In this document: piece by piece, positions 1,010-60,346 of the stretch | Layout: each line of letters begins with the position of its first letter | Numbering within the stretch: position 1 is the first letter of the stretch | Source of the DNA: a virus | Lineage: Duplodnaviria > Caudoviricetes | Length of the DNA: 64,000 nt | Virus record (IMG/VR): IMGVR_UViG_3300025838_000035 | Span: 14,778-78,777 of that record | Direction: 5' to 3' (one strand) | The notes under the pieces: generated by a model | What the model saw: only the letters and a program-made list of their open reading frames with translations | The model's database searches: none | What the model was told of the DNA's origin: nothing | Translations under genes and position numbers: made by a program

Positions 1010-1276
1010 TCAGTTGAGTTTAAGGCTTTCACATACGTTACATTTGCATGTATATGCCATTTTTATGATATTAAGAACACTTTCAATAGAATCTTCACCA
1101 AACATATGACTACAATCATCACCATTGCCTTCACCAGGTCCATCAATACATTTACCAACCAATGTGATGATATAACCATTGCCATAGTTACGTTCATCTG
1201 ACCAGTCTTCAATATGCTTGCTGTACTTTTTAGGAATGTACTTAGGAGTTGTTTTAGAAGTCTTATATGTTTGCAT
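1010..1276 (-). CDS. Hypothetical protein
   Basis: 88-aa ORF with AGGA RBS directly after a promoter. Confidence 0.6.
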   Translation of the reverse strand: MQTYKTSKTTPKYIPKKYSKHIEDWSDERNYGNGYIITLVGKCIDGPGEGNGDDCSHMFGEDSIESVLNIIKMAYTCKCNVCESLKLN

Positions 1277-1326
1277 TTGAGTTCCTTTGAAGTTTAGAAT
1301 TAAGTGTTTAACAAGTAAACAATTAC

Positions 1327-1354
1327 ATTATACCATGCTTTTGACATAAGTAAA
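1327..1354 (-). promoter_or_regulatory. Sigma70-type promoter for the NDT/HD operon
   Basis: Minus strand TTTACT-N16-TATAAT with extended -10 TGG, at the 3' end of the helicase gene. Confidence 0.6.
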
Positions 1355-2752
1355 CAGTTTACTTAACTTATTTTCAGTCTCTGGGCTTTTATTTGCATAG
1401 TCTTTAATGGCATTCATCAAAGCTTGTTGAGTTTTGTCTTTGCTATGAATAGCTTTTACAATTGCTTCATCGATCGTGTCTTTAGCAATGATTTGATGCA
1501 CAATGATATTGTTTCTTTGACCTTGGCGCCACAAACGTCTTATGAACTGTTCATAGATTTCCAATGACCATGTATTGCTAAACCAGATAACTGCATAGCC
1601 TGCACCTTGTAGGTTAAGACCGTGGCCTGCACTTTGTGGGTGTGCCAATAAAACAGGATGTTTGCCTTGGTTCCAATCATCAATGGTTGTTTGCATTTCT
1701 TTGCCGGTTATCCCTGAGCCAATGTGCGGTGCATTAGGAAAAAGCTTTTGCAGTCGTGTTAAGTCATGCCTAAAATGATAGCCAATTAAGCATGGCTTAC
1801 CATTTAACCCTTCAACAAGTTCCTCAACTGCATTTAACTTCTCATCATGCATAGGCTGAACATCTTTGTCTTCGCCATCAAGATAAATAGCACCATTGGC
1901 AATTTGTTGGCATTTACCAACTGCTACTGCAGCTGTTGATGCCGTTACTTTATTGTCATTGATGTCAAGCAACAACTTGTCTTCAAGCTCTTTGTACATC
2001 TTCTTTGCTTTACTTGGCAAGTTAATATACACTTTGTTTGTGATTAGCTCAGGCATGTCAAGATAGTCTTCAGCTTTCATGCGTAAAACTTTGTCAGATA
2101 ACTTGTCATAAATGACTGTATCCATACCTTGCTTAAGCTCCCATGAATAGCCGCCATAGCCAGTTGGGTAGAAGTATGTTGTTCTAAAATGAGTGATAAA
2201 TCGTCCAAATGTAGCACCACGATCAATTACTAACTGTGGACCAAATATATCCATTAAACTATTCGGAGCTGGTGAGCCTGTTAAGCCAAACCGACGTTTG
2301 AATAAGTCCAGCATAGGTGCAAGCGACTTAAATCTTTCTGTTCTTGTGTTTTTAAGGTAGCTAATCTCATCTACAATCAATGCATCATACGGAAAATGCT
2401 GTTTAAGCAATGGCACATTCTTGATTAACCACTGTAAGCCTTCAAAGTTAATGACATGAATGAATGACTTGTCATTTAAGTATTTGTCTTTGTTTGGTCC
2501 GTGAAGCACACTGATGGTTAGGTCTTCAAAGTTTTCCCATTTAGAGACTTCTTGTGGCCATACAGCATAGCACGGCCTTAATGGTGCTAAGACAAGTACT
2601 TTGTTAATTGCTTTTGCCGACCGTAGAATCTTCAATGCTTGCAGTGTGATGCTGGTCTTCCCTAATCCGGGATCCAGCCAAAGTTGTCCTGAGCCGTTTT
2701 CTACTAGAAACTTTACGGCTTTTGTTTGGTAATTGTGTGGACTCCAATACAT
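1328..2752 (-). CDS. SNF2-family phage helicase
   Basis: LDPGLGKT, DEIS, LTGSPAPN, QSAGHGLNLQ, RLWRQGQ; start MYWSPHNYQ at 2752 has an AGAGG RBS. Confidence 0.93.
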   Translation of the reverse strand: MYWSPHNYQTKAVKFLVENGSGQLWLDPGLGKTSITLQALKILRSAKAINKVLVLAPLRPCYAVWPQEVSKWENFEDLTISVLHGPNKDKYLNDKSFIHVINFEGLQWLIKNVPLLKQHFPYDALIVDEISYLKNTRTERFKSLAPMLDLFKRRFGLTGSPAPNSLMDIFGPQLVIDRGATFGRFITHFRTTYFYPTGYGGYSWELKQGMDTVIYDKLSDKVLRMKAEDYLDMPELITNKVYINLPSKAKKMYKELEDKLLLDINDNKVTASTAAVAVGKCQQIANGAIYLDGEDKDVQPMHDEKLNAVEELVEGLNGKPCLIGYHFRHDLTRLQKLFPNAPHIGSGITGKEMQTTIDDWNQGKHPVLLAHPQSAGHGLNLQGAGYAVIWFSNTWSLEIYEQFIRRLWRQGQRNNIIVHQIIAKDTIDEAIVKAIHSKDKTQQALMNAIKDYANKSPETENKLSKLFTYVKSMV

Positions 2753-10667: not shown

Positions 10668-10942
10668 ACAATCAACTAAATGCCAAAGAGAGAGCGTACG
10701 TCAGGCTTGTTAAGAGTCTGCCGTGCTCTGTCTGCGATGCATCAGGCCCAAGTGATGCACACCACGTTAAGCAACATCGTCAATACACCGTTGTTGCCCT
10801 CTGTAAATCATGCCACCAAGGAGCCATCATGGGTTGGCATGGCCAGAAAAGAATGTGGGCTATTAAAAAAATGGACGAGATGGACGCCCTTGATATCACG
10901 ATTCAACGTGCGATCAAGGAGCTTTCTTCAGCGATTTTCTAA
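10664..10942 (+). CDS. HNH-like zinc-binding nuclease (DUF968/Ref-like)
   Basis: LPCSVC...DAHH...VALCKSCHQG. Confidence 0.75.
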   Translation: MNNQLNAKERAYVRLVKSLPCSVCDASGPSDAHHVKQHRQYTVVALCKSCHQGAIMGWHGQKRMWAIKKMDEMDALDITIQRAIKELSSAIF

Positions 10943-13900
10943 TTTCCTCAGCATGTTGTGCAACCTGAGATATCAACAGATCTAAACGTTGAATCTCTTG
11001 TTGCTTCTGCTCCCCAGTCATTGACCTGTTCTGTGGGTTAGCAATCTGTAACTTCTGCTTACGGATACTGGCAATATCCTTGGCAGTCTTATCGTATAGC
11101 TTAGCCAGAGCAATATCGTCTTTCTTCTCAGTCAATATCTCTTTGACCTTTTCCGATTGACCCAACTCGGCATAGTGCCTCATGTCAGCATAAGACTCAG
11201 ATATCCTCTGATTGTTCTGATAGAAGTCAGTTACATAAGTAGACTGTGTTGCAGGCAACTTCTGAACAAAGCCCAAGCTCATGCGCTTAGTCCAGTCAGC
11301 ATCAGGATATACACCATCGTTAAACGGCATCATGGCGTATTGGGAAGTAGTCTCAATCGTACCGCCCAACCACCCCATGTATCCACGGATCATGTAGTCA
11401 ATCTGTACTGGAGAAAGCTCCGTTCCCGCTATGGGAGCAAATACATGGGACACACCACCCAAAGCCTTAGCGATAGCACTTGTATCGTTGCTCACACGCT
11501 CTTGCTTGGATAGACGCTCCATACCAGCAGTCTCGATAGGCGCATTGGTAAATGAATCCTTATTTGCATAAACGTCCACCAAAGGCTTGAAGAACTGAGG
11601 AGTAGGATTCATAGAGAATGTCTGGAAGACCATGCGCTGAATGCTATCTCCAAACACTTTACCCTCTACGCCCTTATCAACGATCTGCTCCAAGCTGCGC
11701 TCAGCCAATGTACCAAATGAGCCAAACTCGAAAGGCTTAGGAATGCGAAACACTTCATTTGTTCCTGGAATCTTGAACCACCAGAAGAAGTCACGATCCC
11801 ATTGCTCACGTTTCTTGAAGTCTTCATCATCTTTGAACGCCATGTACAAAGCCATAGACGCCAAAGTAACTGCGCCTGCGACAGTAGAAAACGACTTGGC
11901 TTTCTGTATATCGTCCTGAATGATTGGCTTACCTGTAGCGGTGTTGTAAAAAACACGAACAGTAGGGTTTATCCCGTCCCGACCAAGCTTGTACAAACCC
12001 TGTAGACGAGCATTCAAGAACGGAACGATCTGAGACAAGTAACGAATAGCGCCTGATGATCCACTCATGGAGAAGTCCATCAAGTCACGAGCTTCGAAAC
12101 TAGCTTCCAAGTGTGTCTTGCCTTCAGCTCTGAGCTTCTTATACAAGGCTATGCGGTTGATGTTCTCTGAACGGTTACCAATCTCTTCATACTTGTGCCA
12201 AAGCTTCTTGAGGAAGTGTTCGACCTTTTCTTTGGTATCGACAATGTTCTCACCGTTCACACCACTAGCAAGCAGTTTCTTAACCACTTGACTGCGATCA
12301 CCCTCTAGCGTTGTTCCGTAGTTGAATACGCCACCACCAGCCAAAGCAGCGATATAAGTAGCGGAACCTGGCTTACTGTCAGCAAAACCATCATAGACAT
12401 TCTTAACAAAGTTGTTGGACAAACCAGACAAACCAGCAGACTGAATCGAATCCTTGATCAAGTTACTGGCTTTAAAGGCAGGAGATAAAGTGACGCCAAA
12501 CCGCAAGTAGTTCTTGAAGTTCCTCATCACATCCAAGACCTTAGACTGTGGCCCAAGGTATGTAATAGCCCCAATAGACTCTAAGAGCATGGGATCATTC
12601 ACATGGAAGTAGGCATCCTTACCATTGATCAAAACCTTAACGGTATCCTTGCCTGAATCCGTCATGCTGACCAAATACTTTTTGCCGTCTTCATCTACAC
12701 GCTCTTGGACAACATCACCGTTTCCTACGATTTTGCCACTTTCAGCAGAGTGAACTGCACCGTCAGCCCAGTAAAGACCAGGCTTCAAGTTAGGAGTAAC
12801 TGCCCCTTGACCAGAGGCATCTTGGATAATCGTGACCGCTGCTTGATTCTTCATCGAGGCAGACAGAATGTGTGACCAGTTACGCATCACGTTTTCCATC
12901 AAATCCCCAAATGGCTTTTCATTCTGACCTTTGAGCATCTTAGAGAATTGCTGATTGGTCAACCTAGACGCAGCTCTAATGGACTCAATCTTTCCATCTT
13001 CCATCGCACGATAGAAAGGAATATAGAAAGCGTCATTGGCAAAGCGCTCATAGGCTTCTTTATCAATCGTCCCTGTATCTAAGGCTACGTCCAGAACAGA
13101 CTTGTTAATGGCCATCATGTCTTTGCGAGCTTGCTCATAAAGCTTAGCCCTAGACACACCATTCAAGTCACCCTTGATCAAGTCATTGCGCTGAGAAACC
13201 ATGCTCGACAAGTTGGGAGAACGCTTTTCATCAGGCAGATTGGCTTCTCTGTTCAAAGCCATCCAGACTTGGAAACGATCTACTTCCTTACCAAGGGGAG
13301 CAAGAGCTTGCATCAAGCCCTTGTGATTGTCCCCAGTTTTAATATTCAAAGCGCCATCATCAAGGAACGCATGGCCATAATGCAAAATACCCTCCAAAGC
13401 TCCGTCAGTAGCCTTGGATAAACGGGCTTGCATGTAGCCGATAGGCGAATAGTCTTTAACCGTCCTCAGCTCATCAACCATCTTCTGAGCCAATGTGTTC
13501 CAGAAGTTACCCTTCATACTTACAACACGATCCAATATCGTCTTATTGGGAGCATAGAACGTACTCTGAATCTGTGACGTTAGCTTAGGATCAACGCCTG
13601 CAAAGGCATCTACATTCATGGGAGAACGCTTCTGTAGGGCTTGCTGAACCTTATCCCCCAAAACACGACCTGCTTCATGGGCGGTCATCATCTTAAGGTA
13701 GTCTTCCTCTTGATGGGATATTGAGTCCGACTCAACATACTTTTGGTAGGAAGGCATATTCATCAAACGATCCATCACACGATCTTGAGGATCCTGATGT
13801 TCGTATAACGCATCCATGATAGCCTGTGGCCTAGACTTGCCTTGAGCAACGCCATTCAGAATAGATGATCTAACCTGACTGGCATCAGCAGTTACATTTG

Positions 13901-16900
13901 TATCAGGAGACAACAACGCAACCGTATGGAGCAGAGGATTTAACTTTGTATCTGATGCAGCGCCCAAGAAGTGTATCGCTTTAGGCTTTACTTCTTTCAG
14001 GAACTGGTCGAGGTCAGCACGGGAAACGGCTTTCTCGTTGGAAGGTATTCCAACAATAAAATTATCCGTGCCTAAGGTTTTGACCAAATGCTTATAAACA
14101 TCAGCCAAAGACATAGCGCCTTTTTGAATTGGAATAATTGGTCTGCTTATATTGAAATTAAGTTCAGCCTGAATCCAATTCTTATGCTTATCAATCAAGT
14201 CCAAAGAGGCTTTTTGATCGCCAACAATGTCAGGCATCACAAATAAAGGTCTTGGATACTCTGATTCCTCTACATCATTTAATCTTTGAATTGCCTCTTC
14301 AATCGCATCATACTTTGCAAGAATGGCATCAAAGTCTAAAGGCTTAGGCTTATTCCCTTTCAACTGTTGCCTGAAATTACTGAACGCACCAGAGTCAACA
14401 AATACTGGCGTCTTCATATTCAAAACAGTATGCGCTATTTGGTTAATCGCATTCTGAGAAATCAAGCCTACGTCCACGCCAATACCGTGATTGGTATGCC
14501 CACTTCTAGCCCGTGTAGCATTTTCAAGATCAGAAATACCACTCATACCAGACGCAAACCGAACTAAGTTTTCTTTGACATGGGCAAGATTCTTTTCTTC
14601 TTCAGTCTCACCAAATAAACTTTGTTGTTGCTTGGCCTGTTCTTTCTTACCAAACCCTTCTAATCTAGGTTGAGTAAATGCAGTAGTAGCTTTCTTGGCT
14701 TTACCCAAGGCATAGCTCTGCTTGATCATTCCATTTTTAAGATCAACCAAGTCGCTGCTCACAATAGAATCTGTGGTGCTAACCAACTTATCCAAGGCAG
14801 TCTCAAACGGCTTAGCAATGCCAAGCAACTCACGGATCAAGGAAACAATGTGATTGAATACAGTCTTTTCCCCGACTTTGATATCGTTCAAGAACTTCTG
14901 TACGCCCTCATCAGTCATACCCCAAGATACAAGCTCGTCCATATTGGACAACGCATTGTTCTTGCCACGCATGAACTCTTGGATAACCAAAGGCAGATCT
15001 GCACCTTTGTTCTTAGCAAACTCAGCGTTATAGTGCCTAACAACTTGGTTATACAAGGTAGCAAGCTCTTTGACCAACGGATCAGTAGACTTCAGGAATC
15101 TCAACTGACCACGGGTAGCAACGTGCAATAGCTCATGCATCACCACCTTGTAGCTCATGCCAGATGGATAGCCCAATTGATTTGCTACGACTGGATGACC
15201 ATTGAGCAATATACGCATGTGCGTATGATCACCATTCTGCCCCCAGTAGAAAGTCGTTACCCCATTAGCATCAAACAACTGACTATTGCGCTGATCTCCG
15301 TCTTGGATCTCAAACTCATAAGTCACGCCTTCTTTAGCCAAAGCCTGAATCCTGTTCAGGACTTTCTGCATCACAAACTTTGTAAACTTATTGGGCGCAT
15401 TGTTGATAGCCCATTGAGCTACCTGAACCATTGACTTGCCCGTCAACTCTTTCTGAATCTTTGCTTGCTCAGAAGTAGGCTTAGGCGCTTGCTCAATAGC
15501 TCCTGTCTTAGACTTTAACGTACCCTCACCAGACTGAGACTTCAATGTCTCAACCCTATCGTGCAACTTGTCCCGAACAGCAGCCATCAAAGCATTATGT
15601 CCCTCACGCTGATAATCAGCTTCTTGAGGGTGTTGATAGCGTACTGCCGTCAATATAGGATCAGGATTGATGCCTAAAGTTTGAGCATTGTCATAGAGCT
15701 CAGGCAATGTCTGACTCTCAAACCAATCCTCAGTAACTGGCCCACGCAAAGCCTTGTCAGCCTCAAACTGACGCTCTTCCTCTGCAACCTGTTGCTCTTT
15801 ATAAGCACCACCAATCTTCTCAATGTCTTCAGGTTTTACCGCATTAGTCGCAATGGCTTGTCTTGCTTCTGCTTGATCTTCATTCTGAATGTAACCAGCC
15901 TGATGCAAAGCTTCAGTAACCTGATCCATCCTGAATCCGTTGGGTCTGAACAAAGGTCTGTTACCAACCTGTTCATTCTTGTCGTAATTCATGTTTGCCA
16001 TTTCGTCTGTATGCAAACCACCACGGCTTGCAACAAACGCCTTAGCACCAATGATAGGCTCACCAGATGCAGTCATGGGTAGACCAATTTGACTCTTTGC
16101 TTCACGATCAAGCTCAGCCTGTGTCTTAGGAGACAGCACAAACTTACCCGCAACCTTGATCATCTTCATGGTCGGATTAAGCTTCTGCGCTGCCTTAGCC
16201 TGAATAGGATTATCAAATGGCACACCGCCATCCTTGATCAGAACGTTATCTTTACCCACATTCAATGGGTGCTCAGAAGCTTTAAAGAACGGCCCTGGAG
16301 CTTTCTTTTCTTTAGGCTCAAAGCCTTGGGCTTGCCAGACTTCTTCAGGCGTCCTAGGCGCAATAAGGTTACCTTCCTTATCCACTTTGGGCTTGGTAGG
16401 CTTGCCCTCTTCTTGAGCTGCTGCTTCGTTGATCGCCTGTTGTTGCTCTAAATCATATTGAACAATGTATGCCTCTTTCTCTTCAGGAGACATAGATGCC
16501 CACTTTTCTTGGGTCATCCGCACCTTTTGAGGAGCATATTTGGCTTCAAATTCCTGTTGCTCATTCAGCGCAACTTGACCGCTAGGCATTACTTTAGGAA
16601 CACCAGCCAATGGAGAATAGCCTAACTGAGGAGGCGTAGCAGCTACTTCTGCTTTATTTAAATTGGGTTGTGGAGCATACTTAGCCTCGAACTGAGACTG
16701 GTTGTACGCATCAAGATCAGCCTGAGTAAGCGCTACCGATCCATCTGGCAAAGCTTGTGGAGTGAATGGCTTATTCATACCAAGAGCTAAAGGCGCAGCA
16801 GGAGGAGGAGCTTCAGGAGGAGCAATCTCTTGTTGTGGTACTTCCAATGGTACTTCAGCAGGAGCTTGGATAGCAGGAGCATTCATCCTAGTCCTGATAC

Positions 16901-17969
16901 CGCCCACACCACCAGGTACTGCACCCATGACAAATGCACCGCCTGCAGTATTGATGTACTCGTTAATAGCGTCTTTGTCATTAACCGACAAGCCTGCACC
17001 ATAACGCTCTGCGGCCTGTTGCAACTCTTCAGCAGGTACTTCCTTAGCACCAGTAGCCAACATACCTTTGCCTACATCAAGCAATAGGTTTCTAGTCGAT
17101 TTGTTAGCAATGTTGCTTAGCCCACCAAGACCAATCTTCTCACCCGCATAATCAGCAAGAGAGTGAACGGCTACGGCAGGAGCTAAACGACTCATGTCGA
17201 TCTGCTCAGGATCATAACCAGCTTCTTGCAAAGCACGACTTGTCGTTTCACCTGTACCGTGAAATACCGCTTGTCCAGCCATGCCTAAGTTTTGACCATA
17301 AGCCGCTGCGCCAGACTTGGCCAGTTTGCTTAGCTCTTCACCATTCAAGCTATCAATAGCATGAGCAGCCACATAATCAGCCGTTGCTTTCTTGGCTTCT
17401 TCTTTAGTAGCACCACTAGCCAATTGCTCTTGAAGTATTTTTTCCGCTGCTTCTTTGATGCCTTTTCTGACCAAAGAACGGTTAACTACACTTTCCATAG
17501 CACCCGCGGCAGTACCAGCTCCTGGAGCTACGGCAGATCCAAGTAGTCCACCAGCCAAAGCAAACGCACCAGTTTCCATGATGTTGGCCATACCCTGACC
17601 AACCTGATAAGGCAACCAATCGGTTACGACTGTACCGATGCCTTGCTTCCATGCCTCTTGCAAATCATCAGACTTCTTGGCTTCTCTCTGCTGAGCTTCA
17701 TTGGCTTCATGGATATTCTTAGCGCCCTTACCCAATAGGTAATCGGATACCACGCCCTGACCAAGAACGTGCTTAGCACCAGCTCCAAGTAGCGTTTGCA
17801 TACCACCAAGAACTTCTTTGTCTGAATCTGCAAGAGACTCAAAGCCACGGACAAAATCACCCTTATCAACACCCAGAAGACCTTGTACCGTTTTATCTAT
17901 TACGCTATGGTCTGTACCATCTGGGAATTCAAGAATACGGCCGTCTGGGAGTTCTGCTTCGATGGTCAT
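10914..17969 (-). CDS. Giant polyvalent ejection protein (2351 aa): zincin metallopeptidase-like, TGT/DpdA-like and C-terminal LPD38 domains
   Basis: HELLH at aa 945-949; VFVDSGAFS...PDIVGD...IHFLG...ADAS at aa ~1135-1375; WDRDFFWWFKIP...RIPKPFEFG LPD38-type tail; last gene of the virion block. Confidence 0.85.
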   Translation of the reverse strand: MTIEAELPDGRILEFPDGTDHSVIDKTVQGLLGVDKGDFVRGFESLADSDKEVLGGMQTLLGAGAKHVLGQGVVSDYLLGKGAKNIHEANEAQQREAKKSDDLQEAWKQGIGTVVTDWLPYQVGQGMANIMETGAFALAGGLLGSAVAPGAGTAAGAMESVVNRSLVRKGIKEAAEKILQEQLASGATKEEAKKATADYVAAHAIDSLNGEELSKLAKSGAAAYGQNLGMAGQAVFHGTGETTSRALQEAGYDPEQIDMSRLAPAVAVHSLADYAGEKIGLGGLSNIANKSTRNLLLDVGKGMLATGAKEVPAEELQQAAERYGAGLSVNDKDAINEYINTAGGAFVMGAVPGGVGGIRTRMNAPAIQAPAEVPLEVPQQEIAPPEAPPPAAPLALGMNKPFTPQALPDGSVALTQADLDAYNQSQFEAKYAPQPNLNKAEVAATPPQLGYSPLAGVPKVMPSGQVALNEQQEFEAKYAPQKVRMTQEKWASMSPEEKEAYIVQYDLEQQQAINEAAAQEEGKPTKPKVDKEGNLIAPRTPEEVWQAQGFEPKEKKAPGPFFKASEHPLNVGKDNVLIKDGGVPFDNPIQAKAAQKLNPTMKMIKVAGKFVLSPKTQAELDREAKSQIGLPMTASGEPIIGAKAFVASRGGLHTDEMANMNYDKNEQVGNRPLFRPNGFRMDQVTEALHQAGYIQNEDQAEARQAIATNAVKPEDIEKIGGAYKEQQVAEEERQFEADKALRGPVTEDWFESQTLPELYDNAQTLGINPDPILTAVRYQHPQEADYQREGHNALMAAVRDKLHDRVETLKSQSGEGTLKSKTGAIEQAPKPTSEQAKIQKELTGKSMVQVAQWAINNAPNKFTKFVMQKVLNRIQALAKEGVTYEFEIQDGDQRNSQLFDANGVTTFYWGQNGDHTHMRILLNGHPVVANQLGYPSGMSYKVVMHELLHVATRGQLRFLKSTDPLVKELATLYNQVVRHYNAEFAKNKGADLPLVIQEFMRGKNNALSNMDELVSWGMTDEGVQKFLNDIKVGEKTVFNHIVSLIRELLGIAKPFETALDKLVSTTDSIVSSDLVDLKNGMIKQSYALGKAKKATTAFTQPRLEGFGKKEQAKQQQSLFGETEEEKNLAHVKENLVRFASGMSGISDLENATRARSGHTNHGIGVDVGLISQNAINQIAHTVLNMKTPVFVDSGAFSNFRQQLKGNKPKPLDFDAILAKYDAIEEAIQRLNDVEESEYPRPLFVMPDIVGDQKASLDLIDKHKNWIQAELNFNISRPIIPIQKGAMSLADVYKHLVKTLGTDNFIVGIPSNEKAVSRADLDQFLKEVKPKAIHFLGAASDTKLNPLLHTVALLSPDTNVTADASQVRSSILNGVAQGKSRPQAIMDALYEHQDPQDRVMDRLMNMPSYQKYVESDSISHQEEDYLKMMTAHEAGRVLGDKVQQALQKRSPMNVDAFAGVDPKLTSQIQSTFYAPNKTILDRVVSMKGNFWNTLAQKMVDELRTVKDYSPIGYMQARLSKATDGALEGILHYGHAFLDDGALNIKTGDNHKGLMQALAPLGKEVDRFQVWMALNREANLPDEKRSPNLSSMVSQRNDLIKGDLNGVSRAKLYEQARKDMMAINKSVLDVALDTGTIDKEAYERFANDAFYIPFYRAMEDGKIESIRAASRLTNQQFSKMLKGQNEKPFGDLMENVMRNWSHILSASMKNQAAVTIIQDASGQGAVTPNLKPGLYWADGAVHSAESGKIVGNGDVVQERVDEDGKKYLVSMTDSGKDTVKVLINGKDAYFHVNDPMLLESIGAITYLGPQSKVLDVMRNFKNYLRFGVTLSPAFKASNLIKDSIQSAGLSGLSNNFVKNVYDGFADSKPGSATYIAALAGGGVFNYGTTLEGDRSQVVKKLLASGVNGENIVDTKEKVEHFLKKLWHKYEEIGNRSENINRIALYKKLRAEGKTHLEASFEARDLMDFSMSGSSGAIRYLSQIVPFLNARLQGLYKLGRDGINPTVRVFYNTATGKPIIQDDIQKAKSFSTVAGAVTLASMALYMAFKDDEDFKKREQWDRDFFWWFKIPGTNEVFRIPKPFEFGSFGTLAERSLEQIVDKGVEGKVFGDSIQRMVFQTFSMNPTPQFFKPLVDVYANKDSFTNAPIETAGMERLSKQERVSNDTSAIAKALGGVSHVFAPIAGTELSPVQIDYMIRGYMGWLGGTIETTSQYAMMPFNDGVYPDADWTKRMSLGFVQKLPATQSTYVTDFYQNNQRISESYADMRHYAELGQSEKVKEILTEKKDDIALAKLYDKTAKDIASIRKQKLQIANPQNRSMTGEQKQQEIQRLDLLISQVAQHAEEIRKSLKKAP
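13716..13740. promoter_or_regulatory. 25-bp pseudo-palindrome site 3 (intragenic)
   Basis: GGATATTGAGTCCGACTCAACATAC; encodes YVESDSIS. Confidence 0.7.
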
Positions 17970-17972
17970 GTT

Positions 17973-20291
17973 TTATCCGATTTGTTTTCCGCTGCTATCG
18001 TATTTGATTCTGGTTGCGCCTGTGGTTGTAGGTTGCGTATTAGCAAAAGGATCAGGCAATCCTAATTTCTGATGAGCTTGTCTATAGTAAGCATTACCCA
18101 TCAAAGCTTTACGTTTCATTTCAGCTCTTGCTTGCTCAAGTTGAGCAGGGTTCATATTCATTAATATATCACCCTTGGTATTCGCTACTGCATTTAACTC
18201 TGCATCTTTCTCTGCTTTAGAAATGTAGTCCGACAAGTCTTTCTGTTGTCGCTCATTTAAAGACGCTTGCCTTTGAGCCAAGTTAGCCGCAGCACTTGTT
18301 GACTTACGCTCTGTCTCAGCCTTCTGAGCTTCTGAACGTTGAGCCAATGCATCTCTACGCATTTGATCGTAAAGCTCTGTCTTAGACAATCCAAGCTGAG
18401 CAGCCATGATCTGTTTCTGCTCATCGCCACGTTGCTTGTTAGCAGTAGCCAAGTATTGCAGACCCTGTGCTCCGCCTTGACCAATGTTAGACATAGCATA
18501 CTGTGAAGTACCACCCATCATACCAAGACCTGCCTGTAAAACAGCAAGCCACATATCCTGCTCTTTAGACTTCTTGCTATCGAACTCCATGTCTTTAAGC
18601 TTCTGTCTAAAGTCAGAAATGTCTGAGCTCTCTTCAGGTTTAGTAGGCAACGCCTCAATTCCCGTAGGTCTTTTCTCGGGCTCACCAGTAGGTTCAAACT
18701 GATTAGCACCAAATCCAATATCCATGTCACCCAAAGGAGGAGTAGTAGGCGTACTATTGTATGCCTCGACTTCACCGTACCCAGGTCCACCTTTTGTGCG
18801 ATGACCGATAGTAGCCGCAGGCAATGGCTTAGAAGGCGTTACATCAGCAGGAGCAGGTAACAAAGAAGTGATCGCAGTTGGAGCTTCATCTTTTCTAATT
18901 GGAACGTTCTGTGTAATACGCTTTTTACCCATATTAGGATAGATCAAAGCAGGGTGTTTTGCTGCTTCAATTTCTTCCAAAGTAGCTCCACCTGGGTTAG
19001 CACCCAAAGCGGTAGGAATGTCAGCATTGTTAGGGCCAGTCAAACCTTTATATGCCATTGTTGCAGCAATAGGAGCACCTAAACCTACAATGCCTGCTGG
19101 GGTTAAAAGCCCTGCTGCGCCAGCTTCTGCTGCGCCAGAGGCAAGAGGATACTTGGGGACAAAGTTGCTCGCTGCCTTTGCTCTTTGAACGCCAGCCGCT
19201 AATTCATCCGCAGTAAATGCATTAGACGGAGCACTGCTTGCAGCAGTAGAAGTACCGAGATTACCAATGCCACCCGAGGATTGAAATGCATTGTTAGCTC
19301 CTAAACTGTATGGTTCACCACCAGCAATATCACTAAACACAAGGCTACCACCTGCACCTTGATAGTGCTTTACTTCTCCGCCAGAAGCCAAACCAACAAT
19401 GCCACCTCTAGCAAAGTTAATACCCTTGATATAGTTCTGGGTTTCTTTCGGGAGCTTGGAGATATCTGCACCGTTAGCAAGCCATTTGTCAGCATTTCCA
19501 GTCCCCCAGTTATAAGCAATAGCTGCAAGTGTAGGATTCTGATACTTATGCAACAACGCATCAGCATACTGTTCGCCTACCCTTTTCAACTCATCAGGAT
19601 TGTTAACATCTTTAGCAGGTGCAATACCAAAACCTGGATCCTTGGCGGTTGCAGGCATGACTTGCATTTCACCCAAAGCGCCCTCAGAAGACTTCAGCAA
19701 GTGACCTTCTTTGTCATAACGCTTACCACCACTTTCTTTTCCAAGAATGTGGCGTCTTAATTTCTCACTCTCATCCAACTGAGCTATTCCTTGAGGAGCA
19801 GCTTGGGGCATAGCTTGAGGCGCAGGTTGTAATGCGGCAATAGCCTGATGCTGTGCTTGTGGTTGCTCAGGTTGCGTCATGTTGACGTCAATATCTTCAT
19901 CTTCTTCACCAGAAACTGGAGCCTGAAGTCTTCCCAATAACGACTTAAACAGAGCAGAATCTTGACGCTCTTCTTCATCATCATCGTCATCTTCACTCAA
20001 ACCGCCATCAGCAAAAGCAACGATGCCACCGCCACTAGCACCTACTGGCATATTGCTAGGCAACGCAGTTACACCTTGACCAGCTTCAGACATGATGCCT
20101 TGAGCAATGGTCTGTTGCGGTTGGTTCTTAGCCGCCGCTAAACCTTGAGCAGTCTTTTGTTGGTTAACCTTGTCTTGCAACATAGGTACGCCAACATAAG
20201 CAGGAATAGTCCCGTCTTGAATTGCCTTTTGCAATTGCTCTACCGACAAATTCTCGGCAGTATATTCACGGCTTGCTAATGATCCAATCAT
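17973..20291 (-). CDS. Internal virion/ejection protein with SLT lytic transglycosylase domain
   Basis: ILGKESGG...GALGEMQVMPATA...AIAYNWGTGN. Confidence 0.88.
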   Translation of the reverse strand: MIGSLASREYTAENLSVEQLQKAIQDGTIPAYVGVPMLQDKVNQQKTAQGLAAAKNQPQQTIAQGIMSEAGQGVTALPSNMPVGASGGGIVAFADGGLSEDDDDDEEERQDSALFKSLLGRLQAPVSGEEDEDIDVNMTQPEQPQAQHQAIAALQPAPQAMPQAAPQGIAQLDESEKLRRHILGKESGGKRYDKEGHLLKSSEGALGEMQVMPATAKDPGFGIAPAKDVNNPDELKRVGEQYADALLHKYQNPTLAAIAYNWGTGNADKWLANGADISKLPKETQNYIKGINFARGGIVGLASGGEVKHYQGAGGSLVFSDIAGGEPYSLGANNAFQSSGGIGNLGTSTAASSAPSNAFTADELAAGVQRAKAASNFVPKYPLASGAAEAGAAGLLTPAGIVGLGAPIAATMAYKGLTGPNNADIPTALGANPGGATLEEIEAAKHPALIYPNMGKKRITQNVPIRKDEAPTAITSLLPAPADVTPSKPLPAATIGHRTKGGPGYGEVEAYNSTPTTPPLGDMDIGFGANQFEPTGEPEKRPTGIEALPTKPEESSDISDFRQKLKDMEFDSKKSKEQDMWLAVLQAGLGMMGGTSQYAMSNIGQGGAQGLQYLATANKQRGDEQKQIMAAQLGLSKTELYDQMRRDALAQRSEAQKAETERKSTSAAANLAQRQASLNERQQKDLSDYISKAEKDAELNAVANTKGDILMNMNPAQLEQARAEMKRKALMGNAYYRQAHQKLGLPDPFANTQPTTTGATRIKYDSSGKQIG

Positions 20292-48449: not shown

Positions 48450-48636
48450 CGTCCGAATGCTCCATTTTCTTTTTCAAGTCTAATATGTTTTGTCGTGCGA
48501 CCAGCAGACCTCGTATCTCGCCGCACAAATTTAAATACTCAGAATAGTCTTTGGCTTGCCCGCTAGCTAACCAATCCTTGAGCATTACTACATTTGATTC
48601 CAGTTGTTGTACCAGAACATCTGATGCATCCATCAC
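48442..48636 (-). CDS. Small conserved head-region protein
   Basis: LASGQAKDYSEYLNLCGEIRGL. Confidence 0.7.
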   Translation of the reverse strand: MMDASDVLVQQLESNVVMLKDWLASGQAKDYSEYLNLCGEIRGLLVARQNILDLKKKMEHSDDE

Positions 48637-51266
48637 TCTCCTTTAGGTTTCTTACTTGCCATTCGCTCTTGATGTTTGACCTGCATGATTGACTTCATGC
48701 CGTCTGCAACAAGCTCGTCCTTAGCCCGAGTATCAGCAGTTCTGTCTGCTAAATACTGCTTGGCCATCTCAACACCATGAGCAACCGAATCGGAATGCTT
48801 TTTGGTCTTGATCTCTGCCACCTTGGAAGCTGCTTCCATGTGTATCTTTTTCTCACCTATTTCATTAGCTTGTTGTCCAAGCATATGTTTAGATGCCGTT
48901 TGCGCCATTGCAATTTGTTGCTTAGATTGGTTTTGCGCCATAGCCACTTGTTGTTGTGACTGAATACGCATCTGCTCAATCTGCAACTGCTGCTGCTTGA
49001 TCTGCAACTGCATTGCATCCATCTGGGCTTTCTGCTGTTGGGCTTGAGCCTTAAGCTGCAACTCTTGTTGTTGCATCTGAATAATTGGATCTTGCGCTTG
49101 TTGTTGAGCTTGTTGTTGTGCTGCTTGACCTTGAGATTGTTGTAACAATCTTTGAGCCGCCTGAGCAAGCAACGGAGCCAATTGAGCTTCCACCTTGGGA
49201 TCCATCTTTTCCTGTTCGCCAGACTCGTCTGTCTGTGGAGGTAATGCAAATCCTAGTTGTTGCTCAATCTGCACCCTATACTCAAAGCCAATGTGCTCAT
49301 TAATATGAGCCATAAGTGCTTGAGTAATAAGAGGAGCTTGTGGGTTACTCTGCAATAATTGTTGGGTTTTTGGATCCTGCATTGCAGACATATGGACTGT
49401 AATGTGCGCCTGATGATCCTGATAAGAAAAAGCTTTAAGCGGTTTCATTACCAAAGCGTTTTGATTCTCCGTGACTGGATCAGTCGGAGCTTGGTCTTCA
49501 GCCATAGGAATCAGCTTGTTAACATCCTTAATACCTAAAACATCAAGCATCTGCTTATGCAATAGGGGCATGTTATATAGCTGAGGAGCCTGTGAAGCTA
49601 ACTGTAAAACCGCCTGATATTGAACAATCTTCTGCGCCATCGTGGACGCATTAGGATCAGCTACTGGGATTACATCGACATTGTGATAGTCAGATTTCTT
49701 GGCTTTTCTACTACCTTCTTCAGGATCATAGTCGTAATCTTCAGGCGTATAGTCAGCAATGATCTCCTTCAAAAGACCCAACTCTTGCTGCATCGAATAG
49801 TAAATTCGAGCCTGAATAGCAGTCGTTACCTTTAGCGTTCTCTCCAAAATAGCCAAAGTCGTACCAACTGGAGACTGTCCAGACATATCACTAATCTGCA
49901 AGTCAGCCGTATTAGCAAAGCGTCTTCCGTCTTCAACGATCTGATTCAACAAAGCCATCAATACTTGGCTAGGTTCCTTATAAGGCAACGGCAATAAGTT
50001 GTCTTTAATAGATCCGCTAGGAACGTCAACGTCCCTGAACTCTCCAGGTGCAATCGGTGTATCGTCACCTTTCACCCTCAAGCCACGAGTCTTGAATCCA
50101 CCAGGCAAGTTACTCAGCGTACCCGCATCAACCAACTGTCTAATTAAAGACGTACCAGACTTGGCAAAAGCTCCAATTAAATGGATCAAACCAAAGTGAT
50201 AGAAACCAAATCCAGGTACATATCCATAGTGGACAAAATGCTGTCTCTTGGCCTTAGTCGGATCATCTGGTGACCAGTTTCTCCTTACCGCCAATACGCT
50301 TGTAGTACCTTTTTCAATCGTAACTATATAAGGCAAAGCAATGCCAGTCGGCTCACCATGCTTATCTACATCTTCAAATCCAGGTAAATCCAAGTCCACA
50401 TGGATCTCTAATACCTTGTATCTATCGTCCGAAGTAGCTCTAAAGCCAAGCTTTTCAGCAATCTTCTTCTCGACTTCATCTAATATATTATCTGGGTGAC
50501 CGAGATCTACATCTCTATAGAAACCAGCAACCTGTAATCTTCTCAACTCATTTTCCGTCTTCCTCATCACATGAGTAATACGGGGAGCACTCTCTAAACT
50601 ACTGGCTCCATAAGGAACAACCACATCCTCGGCAGGAGCAAACATCGACACCTGTCTTCTCATATGGGGATCGTAATACACTTTCTTAAATGCATTACCC
50701 GCTAACCCTAGGCCCCACAACATCCTCTCATGCTCAGGACGGTACTCTTTCATAACGTCCATCAACTGATAGTTCATGTCATTCTGAACTCGCTCAGCAG
50801 CTTCCTTCTTAGCCTGAGTCTCTTTCCCAACGATCTGAGTCTTTACTGGCCCAGCCGCAGGAAACGTACTCATCATTGTTTCAGCTTGGAATTTGACCAA
50901 AGCCTCAGCCAACAACGGGTGAAACACTCCACATGCTCCCTCCCAAGGCTCCGTCCTCTCCTCAATCTTCAATCCCAACAACTCTAGTCCATCGACATAA
51001 GTCTGCATCCATTCTTTTCTAGACGCCAAGTCAGAATCAAAATCCCCAATCAATTCTGTCGCAATACTCAATAACTCCTGCTCTCCAATGAAGTCAGCTA
51101 AGTTATCGTCAAAAGCAATATCGTGATCCTTGCCCATTTCAATATCCAACCCATCAGCGTGAATGCTCACACTCTCAGGATCTTCTATCTCTATCTCTAT
51201 TTCTGGGCCATCGTTTAATAAATCTTCCAGTCCACTAGGAGCCCGATTAAGTGCTTTTTCCAACAT
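48633..51266 (-). CDS. Portal protein (P22-like) with Gln-rich C-terminal barrel
   Basis: SRKEWMQTYVDGLELLG..EPWEGACGVFHP...AGTLSNLPGG..PLPYKEPS. Confidence 0.92.
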   Translation of the reverse strand: MLEKALNRAPSGLEDLLNDGPEIEIEIEDPESVSIHADGLDIEMGKDHDIAFDDNLADFIGEQELLSIATELIGDFDSDLASRKEWMQTYVDGLELLGLKIEERTEPWEGACGVFHPLLAEALVKFQAETMMSTFPAAGPVKTQIVGKETQAKKEAAERVQNDMNYQLMDVMKEYRPEHERMLWGLGLAGNAFKKVYYDPHMRRQVSMFAPAEDVVVPYGASSLESAPRITHVMRKTENELRRLQVAGFYRDVDLGHPDNILDEVEKKIAEKLGFRATSDDRYKVLEIHVDLDLPGFEDVDKHGEPTGIALPYIVTIEKGTTSVLAVRRNWSPDDPTKAKRQHFVHYGYVPGFGFYHFGLIHLIGAFAKSGTSLIRQLVDAGTLSNLPGGFKTRGLRVKGDDTPIAPGEFRDVDVPSGSIKDNLLPLPYKEPSQVLMALLNQIVEDGRRFANTADLQISDMSGQSPVGTTLAILERTLKVTTAIQARIYYSMQQELGLLKEIIADYTPEDYDYDPEEGSRKAKKSDYHNVDVIPVADPNASTMAQKIVQYQAVLQLASQAPQLYNMPLLHKQMLDVLGIKDVNKLIPMAEDQAPTDPVTENQNALVMKPLKAFSYQDHQAHITVHMSAMQDPKTQQLLQSNPQAPLITQALMAHINEHIGFEYRVQIEQQLGFALPPQTDESGEQEKMDPKVEAQLAPLLAQAAQRLLQQSQGQAAQQQAQQQAQDPIIQMQQQELQLKAQAQQQKAQMDAMQLQIKQQQLQIEQMRIQSQQQVAMAQNQSKQQIAMAQTASKHMLGQQANEIGEKKIHMEAASKVAEIKTKKHSDSVAHGVEMAKQYLADRTADTRAKDELVADGMKSIMQVKHQERMASKKPKGE

Positions 51267-51268
51267 AA

Positions 51269-51703
51269 TTAATCCTTATTTTTTGCAGTTCCAGTCGTGT
51301 TATGACTCTTATCATCCCAGTCATAACCCACTGATGTAGGTTCCCCTTTTAACCATTTCTGTATGGATAAAAAGCAACCCCCTCGTTCCCCAAATTTCCC
51401 ACCGTGCCATGCAGTCGGCAACACCCTTATCGTATCACCAAGTGACGTCTGAGAAAACACCTGATCGTCACAACTAAACTCAATGTCCCCCGTCATAAAC
51501 ACTTCAAACGAATCTACATTTGGGTGTATATGCGGCTCAATCACAGAATTAGGCTTTACAGTAAACAATTGCACCTGATAAGGCGCATCCCTAAACAACA
51601 CCACGCCATGAAGATTCCCCGAATAATCCAATCCCATTTCCATAGGACTATTGATCGGTCGATGCGCCATCCAATAATTCATAAACTTTTCTAAATCATC
51701 CAT
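51269..51703 (-). CDS. Cupin-fold protein
   Basis: IEPHIHPNVDSFEVF...PTAWHGG. Confidence 0.7.
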   Translation of the reverse strand: MDDLEKFMNYWMAHRPINSPMEMGLDYSGNLHGVVLFRDAPYQVQLFTVKPNSVIEPHIHPNVDSFEVFMTGDIEFSCDDQVFSQTSLGDTIRVLPTAWHGGKFGERGGCFLSIQKWLKGEPTSVGYDWDDKSHNTTGTAKNKD

Positions 51704-53193
51704 TAGTAATATGGAACCTTTCTTCTAAAGTGTCTTGGCTCATCTTCTTCATCTGTATCCAACCTCAAAAACCCACCAGCCCTAAACCGAATCAAAGCCT
51801 GCGTACTGCTATCCACCAAGTCATCATGCTCACTATTTGGAAAACTGGCCATCTGCTCAACAACCTCATCCGCCCACCTCGTCTCAGGACACCACACCTT
51901 CCCCGACCTGAACAAGTCCGTCACAGAATTCAACCTGACAAACTTATCATTCCCCCTCGTAGGAGTAAACTCACTCACAGGTATCCCCATCCTCCTCAAC
52001 TCAAAGATCAACGGACTACCCGCAGCTTTTGCCTCAATGATAAAAGCATCAGGACTCCACTCCCGATAATAACTATAAGCCGCTTCCTTCAGCTCAGGAA
52101 ACTCCATCCTCCTTTGCACCGCATCCAACAAAATCACGTTCACATCATTGGGGTCTTCATTCAAATTAAACACCCCCCATGTCGTACACGCACTATAGTC
52201 AGACCTCTCATTCTTCGTAAAAGCCGTATCCCATGACTGAATAATAAAACTGCAAGGAGGCGGTCTATCTTCCTTCCATCTCCTCCACCACTCCCTCTTA
52301 ACCAACGCCCCCTCTTCACCAGTCGGCCTTTGCTGATATTGAGCATTCCACTTAGATATTGGCAACTCATCCCTCAGCGCACTCAGCTCATCCAAACTCC
52401 AAAACTCTGGCCACAAAGGATTCCCATTCGGCATGATCGCAGGCAACTCAATCAGCTCCCACTGCTCACCCTTCTCCCTCTGTATCGCATCCCTCAATAC
52501 CCGACCCGTTAAATCCCCATCCCCCCAACGGGTCATCACAATCACAATACTCCCACCTGGCTGTAAACGTTGCCGCGGCCCAGACGTATACCACTCATAA
52601 ACCTTCGCATAAACATCAGGATTCCCCGCCGCCATAGCAGCTTCCTGTTCTGAATGCGGATCATCAATAATCAACAAATCCGCACCCTTACCCGTTACCG
52701 TACCCCCAACACCAATCGCAAAATATTCCCCATTCTTATTCGTACTCCACCTACCCGCCGCCTTACTATCCTGTCTCAAATTTACCTCTGGAAACACAGT
52801 CTTATACTGCTCACTCCCCACCAAGTTCCTAACCTTCCTACCAAACCCAACCGCTAACTCAGCAGTATTCGAACACTGAATCACCTTCTTACTAGGGTAC
52901 TTACCCAAAAACCAACTAGGCAATAAATAACTCGCAAACTCACTCTTTGTATGACGAGGCGCCATATTGATAATCAACCGCTTACTCTCACCCCTCGCAA
53001 TAGCCTCAAACTTTTTCGCCATCACCGAATGATGCCTACCCCCAACAAACCCAGGCCACATCATCTTCACATACGCCATAAAACTGTCCTGAGCCTCCTC
53101 CCTCAAGACACTCTCCTTCACCGCATACACCTTCTCCATGAATGCTTCATATTCATCCTTACTTAACTTCGATATCAATTCTTCTAAATTCAA
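51703..53193 (-). CDS. terL: Terminase large subunit
   Basis: INMAPRHTKSE, GKGADLLIIDDPH, QSWDTA, IEAKAAG, HDDLVDS. Confidence 0.95.
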   Translation of the reverse strand: MNLEELISKLSKDEYEAFMEKVYAVKESVLREEAQDSFMAYVKMMWPGFVGGRHHSVMAKKFEAIARGESKRLIINMAPRHTKSEFASYLLPSWFLGKYPSKKVIQCSNTAELAVGFGRKVRNLVGSEQYKTVFPEVNLRQDSKAAGRWSTNKNGEYFAIGVGGTVTGKGADLLIIDDPHSEQEAAMAAGNPDVYAKVYEWYTSGPRQRLQPGGSIVIVMTRWGDGDLTGRVLRDAIQREKGEQWELIELPAIMPNGNPLWPEFWSLDELSALRDELPISKWNAQYQQRPTGEEGALVKREWWRRWKEDRPPPCSFIIQSWDTAFTKNERSDYSACTTWGVFNLNEDPNDVNVILLDAVQRRMEFPELKEAAYSYYREWSPDAFIIEAKAAGSPLIFELRRMGIPVSEFTPTRGNDKFVRLNSVTDLFRSGKVWCPETRWADEVVEQMASFPNSEHDDLVDSSTQALIRFRAGGFLRLDTDEEDEPRHFRRKVPYY

Positions 53194-58006: not shown

Positions 58007-58849
58007 TCACGCTTTGGCTACTAATTTATTTTGGTTTAATAGCTTTACAATCCCTTGCGAAAATTTGAACAACCCTAGGCGAAGATGGTAATCATTTCCA
58101 TCCTCGCCTTTTTTATCGCTTATCCAATAAGGCAAACCTGTTTGTACTGCTGCCTTCTCCCCTGTTTCGCTCTCATCGTTATCCGCTATTACGATTCCTG
58201 AGTCACACTTACTCGCTAACTTCACCAGATTGTTTGCTGAAAAACAAACATGAATCCGATATCTAACCTTGTGGTTTTTCAAAGCTAGCCTCACGCTTAA
58301 CGCAGTAGCGTAACCCTCGCAAAAAATATCCACTCCATGATTATCAATAATGAACTCAGCTTCACTACTCTTTTGGCCATATAGAAACTTTTTCTCCCCA
58401 TTGACGTTAATCATTTGACAACCGACCAAATGCTCGCCAACACGCATTGGAATAATAAGCATTGGCCCATCTTGATGCTCGAAAACGTAGCCTGATTCAC
58501 CCTCGAAACCTTTCTTTCTAAGGTATGGATGGTGTGCGAACGTGCAATTTTTAAGGATGTGTGCAGCCTTATCAGACGCTTGCTTTTGTAACTGCAAAAT
58601 ACGCTCTGATTCACGCTTAGCCATTTCCCTATACTTCACTTGATCCAAGTATGAAATTGAATCAGGCTTCCAAGTAATGATCTTGTCGTGAACTGCATGA
58701 TTCTGAACGAACGCATGAGTACCCATGTACTTAACTGCCCCATTCTTTGACCTTGGATGATCCTCCGTTGGATACCTTTTCCATATGCCAATCGGAGGAT
58801 ATGAATCAATTAATATCCCTTGATCTCTACAAAAATCTATTAAATCCAT
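58007..58849 (-). CDS. Toprim-domain primase (TraC/DUF5710-like)
   Basis: HPYLRKKG, CQMINVNGEKKFL, FCEGYATA, IADND, DGND. Confidence 0.85.
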   Translation of the reverse strand: MDLIDFCRDQGILIDSYPPIGIWKRYPTEDHPRSKNGAVKYMGTHAFVQNHAVHDKIITWKPDSISYLDQVKYREMAKRESERILQLQKQASDKAAHILKNCTFAHHPYLRKKGFEGESGYVFEHQDGPMLIIPMRVGEHLVGCQMINVNGEKKFLYGQKSSEAEFIIDNHGVDIFCEGYATALSVRLALKNHKVRYRIHVCFSANNLVKLASKCDSGIVIADNDESETGEKAAVQTGLPYWISDKKGEDGNDYHLRLGLFKFSQGIVKLLNQNKLVAKA

Positions 58850-60324: not shown

Positions 60325-60346
60325 TATGATTCTCCACTACCAACAC

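Follow-up and report, generated by a model that had tools for sequence, protein, structure and literature searches.

The DNA analysed here, called the window below, is a stretch of 64,000 nucleotides covering positions 14,778 to 78,777 of the IMG/VR virus record IMGVR_UViG_3300025838_000035 (Duplodnaviria; Caudoviricetes), which is 78,777 bp long and rated 100% complete. Its minus strand carries the gene of a giant polyvalent protein of 2,351 amino acids (aa), and inside this protein we found a barrel domain which very probably represents an uncatalogued clade of the tRNA-guanine transglycosylase (TGT)/DpdA superfamily, catalytically intact as judged from its residues, with the DpdA proteins of phages as nearest described relatives. 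A sequence-only reading of the window had proposed such a domain from the order of its motifs and from two aspartates, D1192 and D1362, and both the motif order and the aspartates were found to match the TGT/DpdA barrel by profile-profile alignment (hhalign), by an AlphaFold2 (AF2) model and by structure comparison.

All seven motifs quoted in that reading were recovered by motif search at the places given for them, between aa 1137 and 1364 (window 13878-14561). The domain itself had been drawn at 13840-14570; its location is right, but its real extent, defined by the coverage of hidden Markov model (HMM) matches and by the model, is slightly wider (Table 1). Conservation was counted after re-alignment of the best 150 relatives, which share at most 50% identity, and rows with a gap were excluded from the fractions. 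D1192 is an aspartate in 143/143 sequences, D1247 in 149/149 and D1362 in 146/147, while P1246 is kept in 148/149, P1309 in 149/149, and H1333, L1335 and G1336 in 148/148 each. S1310 is present in 124 rows, so that the family motif at this place reads G-[ILV]-P-S, and Q1252, G1284 and R1367 are kept in 143, 146 and 139 rows. Position 1282 is a glutamine in 133 rows, a proline in 9 and a histidine in 7; TGT enzymes have a glutamine at the equivalent position of strand 5. Because the key residues are near-invariant across 150 divergent relatives, we read the barrel family as one of active enzymes.

The family question was settled by profile methods, since structure alone left it undecided between TGTs and aldolases. 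The family alignment, made of the barrel segment and 49 solo homologues (50 sequences) and used for both the AF2 and the hhalign runs, gave a profile similarity of 97.3% to 11 diverse phage DpdAs (E = 2.4e-11) and a probability of 90% to 9g DpdA alone (E = 1.5e-6), in the latter case over 146 columns running from the DSGAF motif to the aspartate of strand 8. In these comparisons D1192 is paired with D72 (DSGAF), D1247 with D114 (xDxxGD), Q1282-x-G with H141-x-G, H1333-x-x-G with H196-G-F-G and, in the alignment to 9g DpdA alone, D1362 with D215; the aligned 9g positions are invariant columns of the phage DpdA alignment. In the DpdA of S. Montevideo, mutagenesis has assigned the role of acid/base to D95, that of base binding to D130, the reading of the base edge to H181 and nucleophilic attack to D256, and exchange is abolished by D95A and by D256A (PMC10164549); the DSGAF motif to which D72 of 9g belongs is the one that holds D95 in the S. 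Montevideo enzyme (PMC10164549). His196 is a hallmark of DpdA and is absent from DpdA2 (PMC6884629). As a control, hhalign to E. coli Tgt reached 2%, along the DSGxF stretch only. This low score is not evidence against membership in the superfamily, because a true phage DpdA profile compared with E. coli Tgt also scored merely 8.8%.

AF2 run on the single sequence gave a mean predicted local distance difference test (pLDDT) score of 43.6, and a confident model needed the family alignment, with which eight beta strands alternating with helices were obtained (pLDDT 89.9, predicted template modelling score 0.85), i.e. a triosephosphate isomerase (TIM) barrel. The conserved residues are found at C-terminal strand ends, namely those of strands 1, 3, 4, 5, 6, 7 and 8, and four helices follow the barrel. 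The eight-stranded barrel expected from the motifs is therefore there, and TGT/DpdA structures are among its top matches. Foldseek against the PDB returned bacterial TGTs and class II aldolases intermixed (E ~1e-5), and a DALI-like re-alignment gave Z scores of 15.5 for the TGTs 2ash and 1j2b, 15.3-15.4 for 1iq8 and 15.2 for the aldolases. In a search over 48,161 PDB representatives, five TGT-superfamily clusters fell within the top ten, interleaved with aldolases and PdxJ: the archaeal-type enzyme ArcTGT (1iq8, Z 15.3), Cap10 in the Cap10-CdnD structure (9ntn, Z 14.2), a bacterial TGT (3unt, Z 13.8), DpdA (7ui4, Z 13.6, with a root-mean-square deviation of 3.7 Å over 224 residues and 13% identity) and QTRT2 (Z 12.7). 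Among viral models (BFVD) the best match was an 'ART-PolyVal-like' phage protein, A0A6J5LU57 (E = 1.9e-14, 24% identity), followed by a protein of Vibrio phage nt-1 and then by several phage 'queuine tRNA-ribosyltransferases', which are the best named viral matches. Two other assignments were tried and rejected. For a class II aldolase, hhalign to E. coli FbaA gave 0.2%, and the barrel that both have in common is all that stands behind the structural Z of 15.2. For TIM-B, a reading prompted by a language-model neighbour called 'T4 beta protein family', hhalign to P4 beta gave 0.4% and PF14350 found no match.

In an exhaustive HMMER scan of 1.84 billion cluster representatives with the segment aa 1100-1420, the numbers of relatives at E ≤ 1e-3, E ≤ 1e-10 and E ≤ 1e-30 were 682, 316 and 56, respectively; with hundreds of relatives at E ≤ 1e-10, the match is far beyond chance. 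By length, the best 150 comprise 64 proteins of more than 1,000 aa, 40 of these exceeding 3,000 aa, and 62 of less than 450 aa. The barrel is not a one-off insert: it makes up a large family that recurs in the giant proteins of both phages and conjugative elements. Catalogues of known domains say little about it: for the barrel segment, Pfam at E ≤ 10 returned a chance winged helix-turn-helix match alone and NCBIfam sub-threshold noise alone, tblastn against 50,697 phage records gave no genuine match, and DUF6610 matched one of the 50 family members (E = 0.0026).

Table 1. Features of the polyvalent protein gene and its surroundings in the window, and loci in other records (L numbers are our handles for those loci, followed by the range within each)
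Feature	Protein position (aa)	Position in window or locus	Strand	Basis or remark
Giant polyvalent protein gene		10914..17969	minus	2,351-aa open reading frame (ORF); ORF list and translation
DpdA/TGT-like (beta/alpha)8 barrel domain	~1123-1403	13761..14603	minus	HMM coverage and AF2 model
RFASGMSG	1137-1144		minus	motif search
VFVDSGAF	1189-1196		minus	contains D1192
VMPDIVGDQ	1244-1252		minus	contains D1247
IIPIQKG	1278-1284		minus	contains Q1282
IVGIPS, strand 6 and loop	1305-1310	14040..14057	minus	place of the TGT/DpdA Gly-rich loop
IHFLG	1332-1336		minus	contains H1333
TADAS	1360-1364		minus	contains D1362
Codon of D1192, predicted general acid/base	1192	14394..14396	minus	aligns with D72 of 9g DpdA
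Codon of D1247, predicted base-recognition Asp	1247	14229..14231	minus	aligns with invariant D114 of phage DpdA
Codon of Q1282, base-edge position (DpdA His/TGT Gln)	1282	14124..14126	minus	aligns with H141 of 9g DpdA
Codon of H1333, equivalent of DpdA-specific His196 of 9g	1333	13971..13973	minus	hhalign
Codon of D1362, predicted nucleophile	1362	13884..13886	minus	aligns with D215 of 9g DpdA
HELLH motif, candidate zincin-type processing peptidase	945-949	15123..15137	minus	motif search; upstream of the barrel
C-terminal carrier module	1440-2351	10917..13652	minus	Pfam, tblastn; includes LPD38 (window 11340-11828)
Hydrophobic segment, 19 residues	~2027-2045	11835-11891	minus	hydropathy; directly before LPD38
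Upstream neighbour, 772-aa virion protein with lysozyme-like domain		17973..20291	minus	PHROG 'virion structural protein' and 'endolysin' families
Portal gene		48633..51266	minus	same late operon
Large terminase gene, operon start		51703..53193	minus	
Vibrio phage 1.232.O, carrier LPD38		L019:1-9876		preceded by helicase, methyltransferase and GNAT
Achromobacter phage CF418P1, carrier LPD38		L018:1472-9523		preceded by InPase and LPD3
Solo locus		L013:7067-15928		Mom, DarB-like/AAA_34, PAPS_reduct-like (PP-loop) and ParB neighbours recur across this and the next three loci
Solo locus		L015:8001-16876		as above
Solo locus		L021:227-14420		as above
Solo locus		L023:5858-14198		as above

The protein that carries the barrel has the marks of a polyvalent protein, being giant and multi-domain, bearing an LPD module and lying in a virion-structural gene context. 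Its gene is the last of a long late structural operon on the minus strand (terminase, portal, structural genes), in which virion structural proteins are encoded between the portal and the polyvalent gene. LPD38 is the only Pfam match of the whole protein (aa 2048-2210, E = 3.6e-32), and the PHROG matches, phrog_18222 and phrog_9854, are confined to its C-terminal half; an LPD38 polyvalent protein closing the structural operon, as the sequence-only reading had it, is what both Pfam and the operon annotation indicate. Directly before LPD38 lies the sole strongly hydrophobic stretch of 19 residues in the protein, which may be the membrane-insertion segment of the carrier. The HELLH motif may mark a metallopeptidase of processing type that frees the modules of the giant protein; the Pfam scan of the protein gave no match in the region of this motif, and the language-model neighbours of aa 800-1100 are LPD23, LPD1 and MuF_C clusters, which are a lead only. 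The entire protein is devoid of cysteine, a composition that may suit crossing of the periplasm.

A survey of IMG/VR with a tightened family alignment brought 28 other viral records with the barrel. All copies but one (27 of 28) are part of long open frames, whose lengths range from 1,603 to more than 6,100 aa, and the C-terminal carrier of the 2,351-aa protein recurs in four of these giants. In 15 giants, the domains found alongside the barrel were LPD1 (4), ART-PolyVal (3), LPD38 (3), InPase (2), RadC (2) and AAA_34 (2), with N6_Mtase, LPD3, LPD5, GGDEF and others as single cases. According to the main text of a 2017 survey of polyvalent proteins, LPD38 and InPase are of phage type and RadC is of conjugative type (PMC5512222); the barrel giants mix domains of the two types. 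The carrier (aa 1440-2351) can also be followed by itself, since tblastn finds it in 72 phage records, and in the two of them whose upstream cargo was scanned this cargo consists of other domains (Table 1). This suggests that the LPD38 carrier behaves as a plug-in delivery chassis with exchangeable cargo, the barrel being one such cargo module. As the carrier of Vibrio phage 1.232.O bears a methyltransferase, the barrel fills a slot which is held elsewhere by a DarB-like DNA methylase.

Of the loci of solo homologues, eight were informative, and these are anti-restriction neighbourhoods of the type known from plasmids and integrative and conjugative elements (ICEs): large ParB_N/HTH_ParB proteins occur in 5/8, DarB-like methylases or AAA_34 helicases in 4/8, PAPS_reduct-like genes in 3/8 and Mom in 2/8, and ArdC-N with MPTase-PolyVal, RadC, Toprim_3 and Mrr are further neighbours. 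The PAPS_reduct-like neighbour could be a functional partner of the solo homologues; QueC is a PP-loop enzyme as well. Elsewhere in the window, a separate cluster of three minus-strand genes (58849-62421) codes for a helicase (58849-60324), a DNA methyltransferase (60347-61654) and a protein resembling ParB (61651-62421).

What the domain does for the virus can be put forward only tentatively. The reading we favour, to which we give an even chance or slightly less, is that the polyvalent protein is a delivered cargo DNA transglycosylase using the 7-deazaguanine of the host. The LPD38 carrier would place the giant among virion-internal or ejected proteins, and packaging is suggested by homology to gp47 of phi24B, an LPD38 protein which was detected in virions by mass-spectrometry proteomics and whose ejection has been only proposed. 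In the predicted reaction, D1362 would attack C1′ of the target guanine nucleotide and D1192 would protonate the leaving base, while D1247 and Q1282 would hold the purine edge; the incoming base would then resolve the covalent intermediate in a double displacement, as in DpdA. This base would be drawn from the host pool and would presumably be preQ0 or preQ1. A DNA substrate is favoured because the solo homologues adjoin DNA-modifying genes, and the likeliest would be the DNA of the element itself, acted on while it is packaged or as it enters the cell. One possible site is the producing cell, where the protein, made from a late gene, would meet the DNA at packaging; another is the next host, after ejection. 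In both cases, rewriting of the DNA would blunt restriction, as packaged P1 DarB does by methylation.

The sequence-only reading had noted that folE, queD, queE and queC were not to be seen, and searches of the whole phage genome bore this out: there was no match to QueC, QueD/PTPS, FolE (GTP cyclohydrolase I) or to a radical S-adenosylmethionine (SAM) protein. QueC was likewise not found in any of the 28 other IMG/VR viral records with the barrel, 17 of which are at least 90% complete, and no que genes were found near the eight solo loci. Since preQ0 is made by none of the carrier phages, the host would have to supply the incoming base. There are precedents for this: in E. coli, 9g DpdA by itself draws on the host pool and brings dPreQ0 into plasmid DNA, at ~0.3% of G, and 76 phages encode DpdA without any preQ0 gene (PMC6884629). 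Bacterial DpdA requires the ParB-like DpdB, and phage DpdA genes often adjoin ParB-like genes. The ParB-like gene of the phage studied here is ~44 kb from the barrel, no DpdB or DpdC is adjacent, and a genomic link of the barrel to preQ0 synthesis or to a DpdB partner was thus not found.

Several points weigh against a delivered DNA transglycosylase of DpdA type. The function is a prediction made from homology and context, and the absence of QueC fits host scavenging and a chemistry unrelated to 7-deazaguanine equally well. In the comparison with the 11 DpdAs the profile-profile alignment ends one strand before the nucleophile, so the equivalence of D1362 and D215 rests on one alignment and on strand position. 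The modelled structure fits the TGT superfamily, but by itself it cannot separate the barrel from class II aldolases (Z 15.2). The Pfam models for TGT (PF01702), DpdA (PF23859) and Beta_protein (PF14350) all failed to match: PF01702 found nothing in the protein or the genome and matched 14/14 positive controls, and PF23859 and PF14350 found nothing even at E ≤ 10, which for PF23859 is weak evidence, known phage DpdAs of the 9g type being also without a precomputed Pfam domain. PDB sequences searched with the barrel segment gave nothing by phmmer or by the family profile, and PADLOC returned nothing relevant.

The barrel also departs from described members of the superfamily. In TGTs and DpdA, a Gly-rich loop after strand 6 (G206-G207 in S. 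Montevideo DpdA) reads O6 and the 7-substituent of the base (PMC10164549), and in the barrel its place would be taken by the conserved G-[ILV]-P-S, as far as the correspondence can be judged from strand order. The zinc site of TGT type is missing, and a cysteine-based one is excluded since the whole protein has no cysteine. Past strand 8 the DSSP assignment of the model gives helices only, in a place that a hairpin occupies in the superfamily; according to a 2026 preprint on TIM-B, the C-terminal hairpin plus helix extension positions the macromolecular substrate. None of these three departures is mentioned in the sequence-only reading. With an altered loop, the zinc site lost and the hairpin apparently lost too, the base and the substrate may differ from those of DpdA, and specificity is less fixed than the name DpdA would suggest.

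These departures leave room for other chemistries and targets. One could imagine that the barrel is an N-glycosylase or lyase which takes guanine, or some modified purine, out of DNA and puts no new base in its place, e.g. to strip host marks or to damage host DNA. The first half-reaction would be chemically identical and the catalytic aspartates required for it are conserved; the altered 7-substituent loop and the lack of a precursor pathway in every carrier phage would also be accounted for. We nevertheless hold this to be improbable, because abasic sites would be harmful in the element's own incoming DNA, and because the base-edge residues D1247 and Q1282 have been retained, which points to a purine pocket kept for a second base; no hydrolytic member of the superfamily was met in the literature, in which no dedicated search for one was made.

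A second possibility is that the target is host tRNA, in which G or Q would be swapped or removed at position 34 or elsewhere, disarming anticodon-nuclease defences or retuning translation. It is supported by tRNA being the ancestral substrate of the superfamily, by structural matches to tRNA TGTs (Z 15.3-15.5) that equal or exceed the match to DpdA (Z 13.6), and by the glutamine of strand 5, found in 133 rows, which is the TGT state and not the histidine of DpdA. But the profile similarity points to phage DpdA (97%) with just 2% for E. coli Tgt, the DpdA-specific histidine is conserved, the zinc subdomain for tRNA binding is absent and Pfam finds neither a PUA domain nor any other domain for tRNA binding in the protein; the DNA-modifying neighbours of the solo homologues argue in the same direction, and a tRNA target appears to us more improbable than a glycosylase acting on DNA.

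Lower again in probability is a transfer of a nucleobase to, or its removal from, a protein or a small molecule, which might undo or mimic a defence-regulating mark. The model for this is Cap10, which puts deazaguanine on the N-terminus of a CBASS (cyclic oligonucleotide-based antiphage signalling system) cyclase, as cited in the 2026 preprint, where it is argued that the TGT-related TIM-B barrels regulate effectors by nucleobase transfer. The Cap10-CdnD structure is among the top structural matches of the barrel (Z 14.2), and polyvalent proteins carry many anti-defence and protein-modifying modules (PMC5512222). At the level of sequence, however, no link to Cap10 or TIM-B was seen (0.4% for P4 beta, and no PADLOC match), and the genomic company of the family is centred on DNA. 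Cap10 works with a QueC-like partner, and such a partner is not present in the carrier phages. Finally, a catalytically dead scaffold or DNA-binding module within a structural protein, which the lack of zinc site and Gly-rich loop and the apparent lack of the hairpin might suggest, can practically be dismissed, since three aspartates, one histidine and several glycines and prolines are invariant in the 150 representatives, in giants and solos alike, a pattern that purifying selection on an active site typically leaves.

The sequence-only reading had supposed that a TGT/DpdA domain was undescribed in ejection or polyvalent proteins, and a full-text literature search, extended to leading-region proteins, found no description of one. 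The main text of the 2017 survey of polyvalent proteins makes no mention of TGT, queuine or such a barrel, and lists 'potentially enzymatic' LPDs, including LPD19 and LPD21 (PMC5512222). The barrel may be identical with one of these two, whose alignments lie outside that main text. To our knowledge, neither LPD19 nor LPD21 has a Pfam model. The 2026 preprint adds TIM-B to the superfamily and refers to protein modification of the Cap10 type; the barrel clade is not covered in it. What is known is thus the enzyme superfamily and the concept of the carrier, and what is new is the clade, the architecture and the precursor-independent logic.

So far, 7-deazaguanine modification of DNA has been a replication-linked trait of phages or a bacterial restriction-modification mark. 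If the delivered DNA transglycosylase is real, a version never linked to precursor synthesis, it would show that mobile elements can supply the modifying enzyme themselves and rely on the host for the base to be installed. It would also give a concrete chemistry to a very large unannotated family, whose members are parts of giants (2,000-7,000 residues) or lie in anti-restriction islands of plasmids and ICEs, extend the catalogue of polyvalent-protein activities, and might help to explain restriction-resistant phages in which current tools recognise no modification genes. The family is a natural source of DNA base-exchange enzymes, possibly with new base or sequence specificity. A more far-reaching version, which we think rather unlikely, is that a new base-exchange clade (at least 682 clusters at 50% identity) is delivered as protein together with the DNA and takes only minutes to rewrite purines of the entering genome or of some target in the host, with whatever free base the recipient offers. 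It would be the first DNA transglycosylase of an 'injected' kind and would amount to a new and general strategy of anti-restriction; the remodelled pocket, with its G-x-P-S loop, glutamine at strand 5 and apparent lack of the hairpin, might even install a base other than preQ0.

Among the systems described to date, the barrel is closest to phage DpdA of the 9g gp03 type, with which it shares, besides the profile similarity of 97.3%, the same order of DSGAF aspartate, xDxxGD aspartate, H/Q-x-G, H-x-x-G and strand-8 aspartate, a size of ~300 residues, the lack of a conserved cysteine and a phage-borne gene; DpdA-only phages exist too. It differs in being embedded in a 2,351-aa virion polyvalent protein, whereas DpdA is an early or replication-module gene, and in having glutamine for histidine at strand 5, 'DA(N/S)' for 'DSS' at strand 8, G-x-P-S for the Gly-rich loop and, in the model, helices for the post-barrel hairpin. 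With S. Montevideo DpdA (7UI4) it has the TIM barrel and the catalytic logic of D95/D130/D256 in common, but that enzyme needs DpdB and acts in host defence, while the barrel would serve a mobile element as cargo, for attack or for protection. The TGTs, bacterial TGT and ArcTGT, provide the highest structural matches and share DSGxF and the glutamine at strand 5; in contrast to them, the barrel has no PF01702 match and no zinc-binding CxCxxC...H. TIM-B (PF14350, P4 beta) and the Cap10 of type IV CBASS are, like the barrel, recently recognised offshoots of the deazaguanine-transglycosylase barrel in the conflict of phage and host, but they regulate defence for a host or a satellite and are paired with toxins, and the barrel is a cargo of invading elements. 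The closest parallel in terms of architecture is offered by P1 DarB and the DarB-like methylase-helicases (PMC5512222), each a DNA-modifying enzyme in a giant virion-associated multi-domain protein, except that base exchange would replace methylation and a free base of the host would be used instead of SAM.

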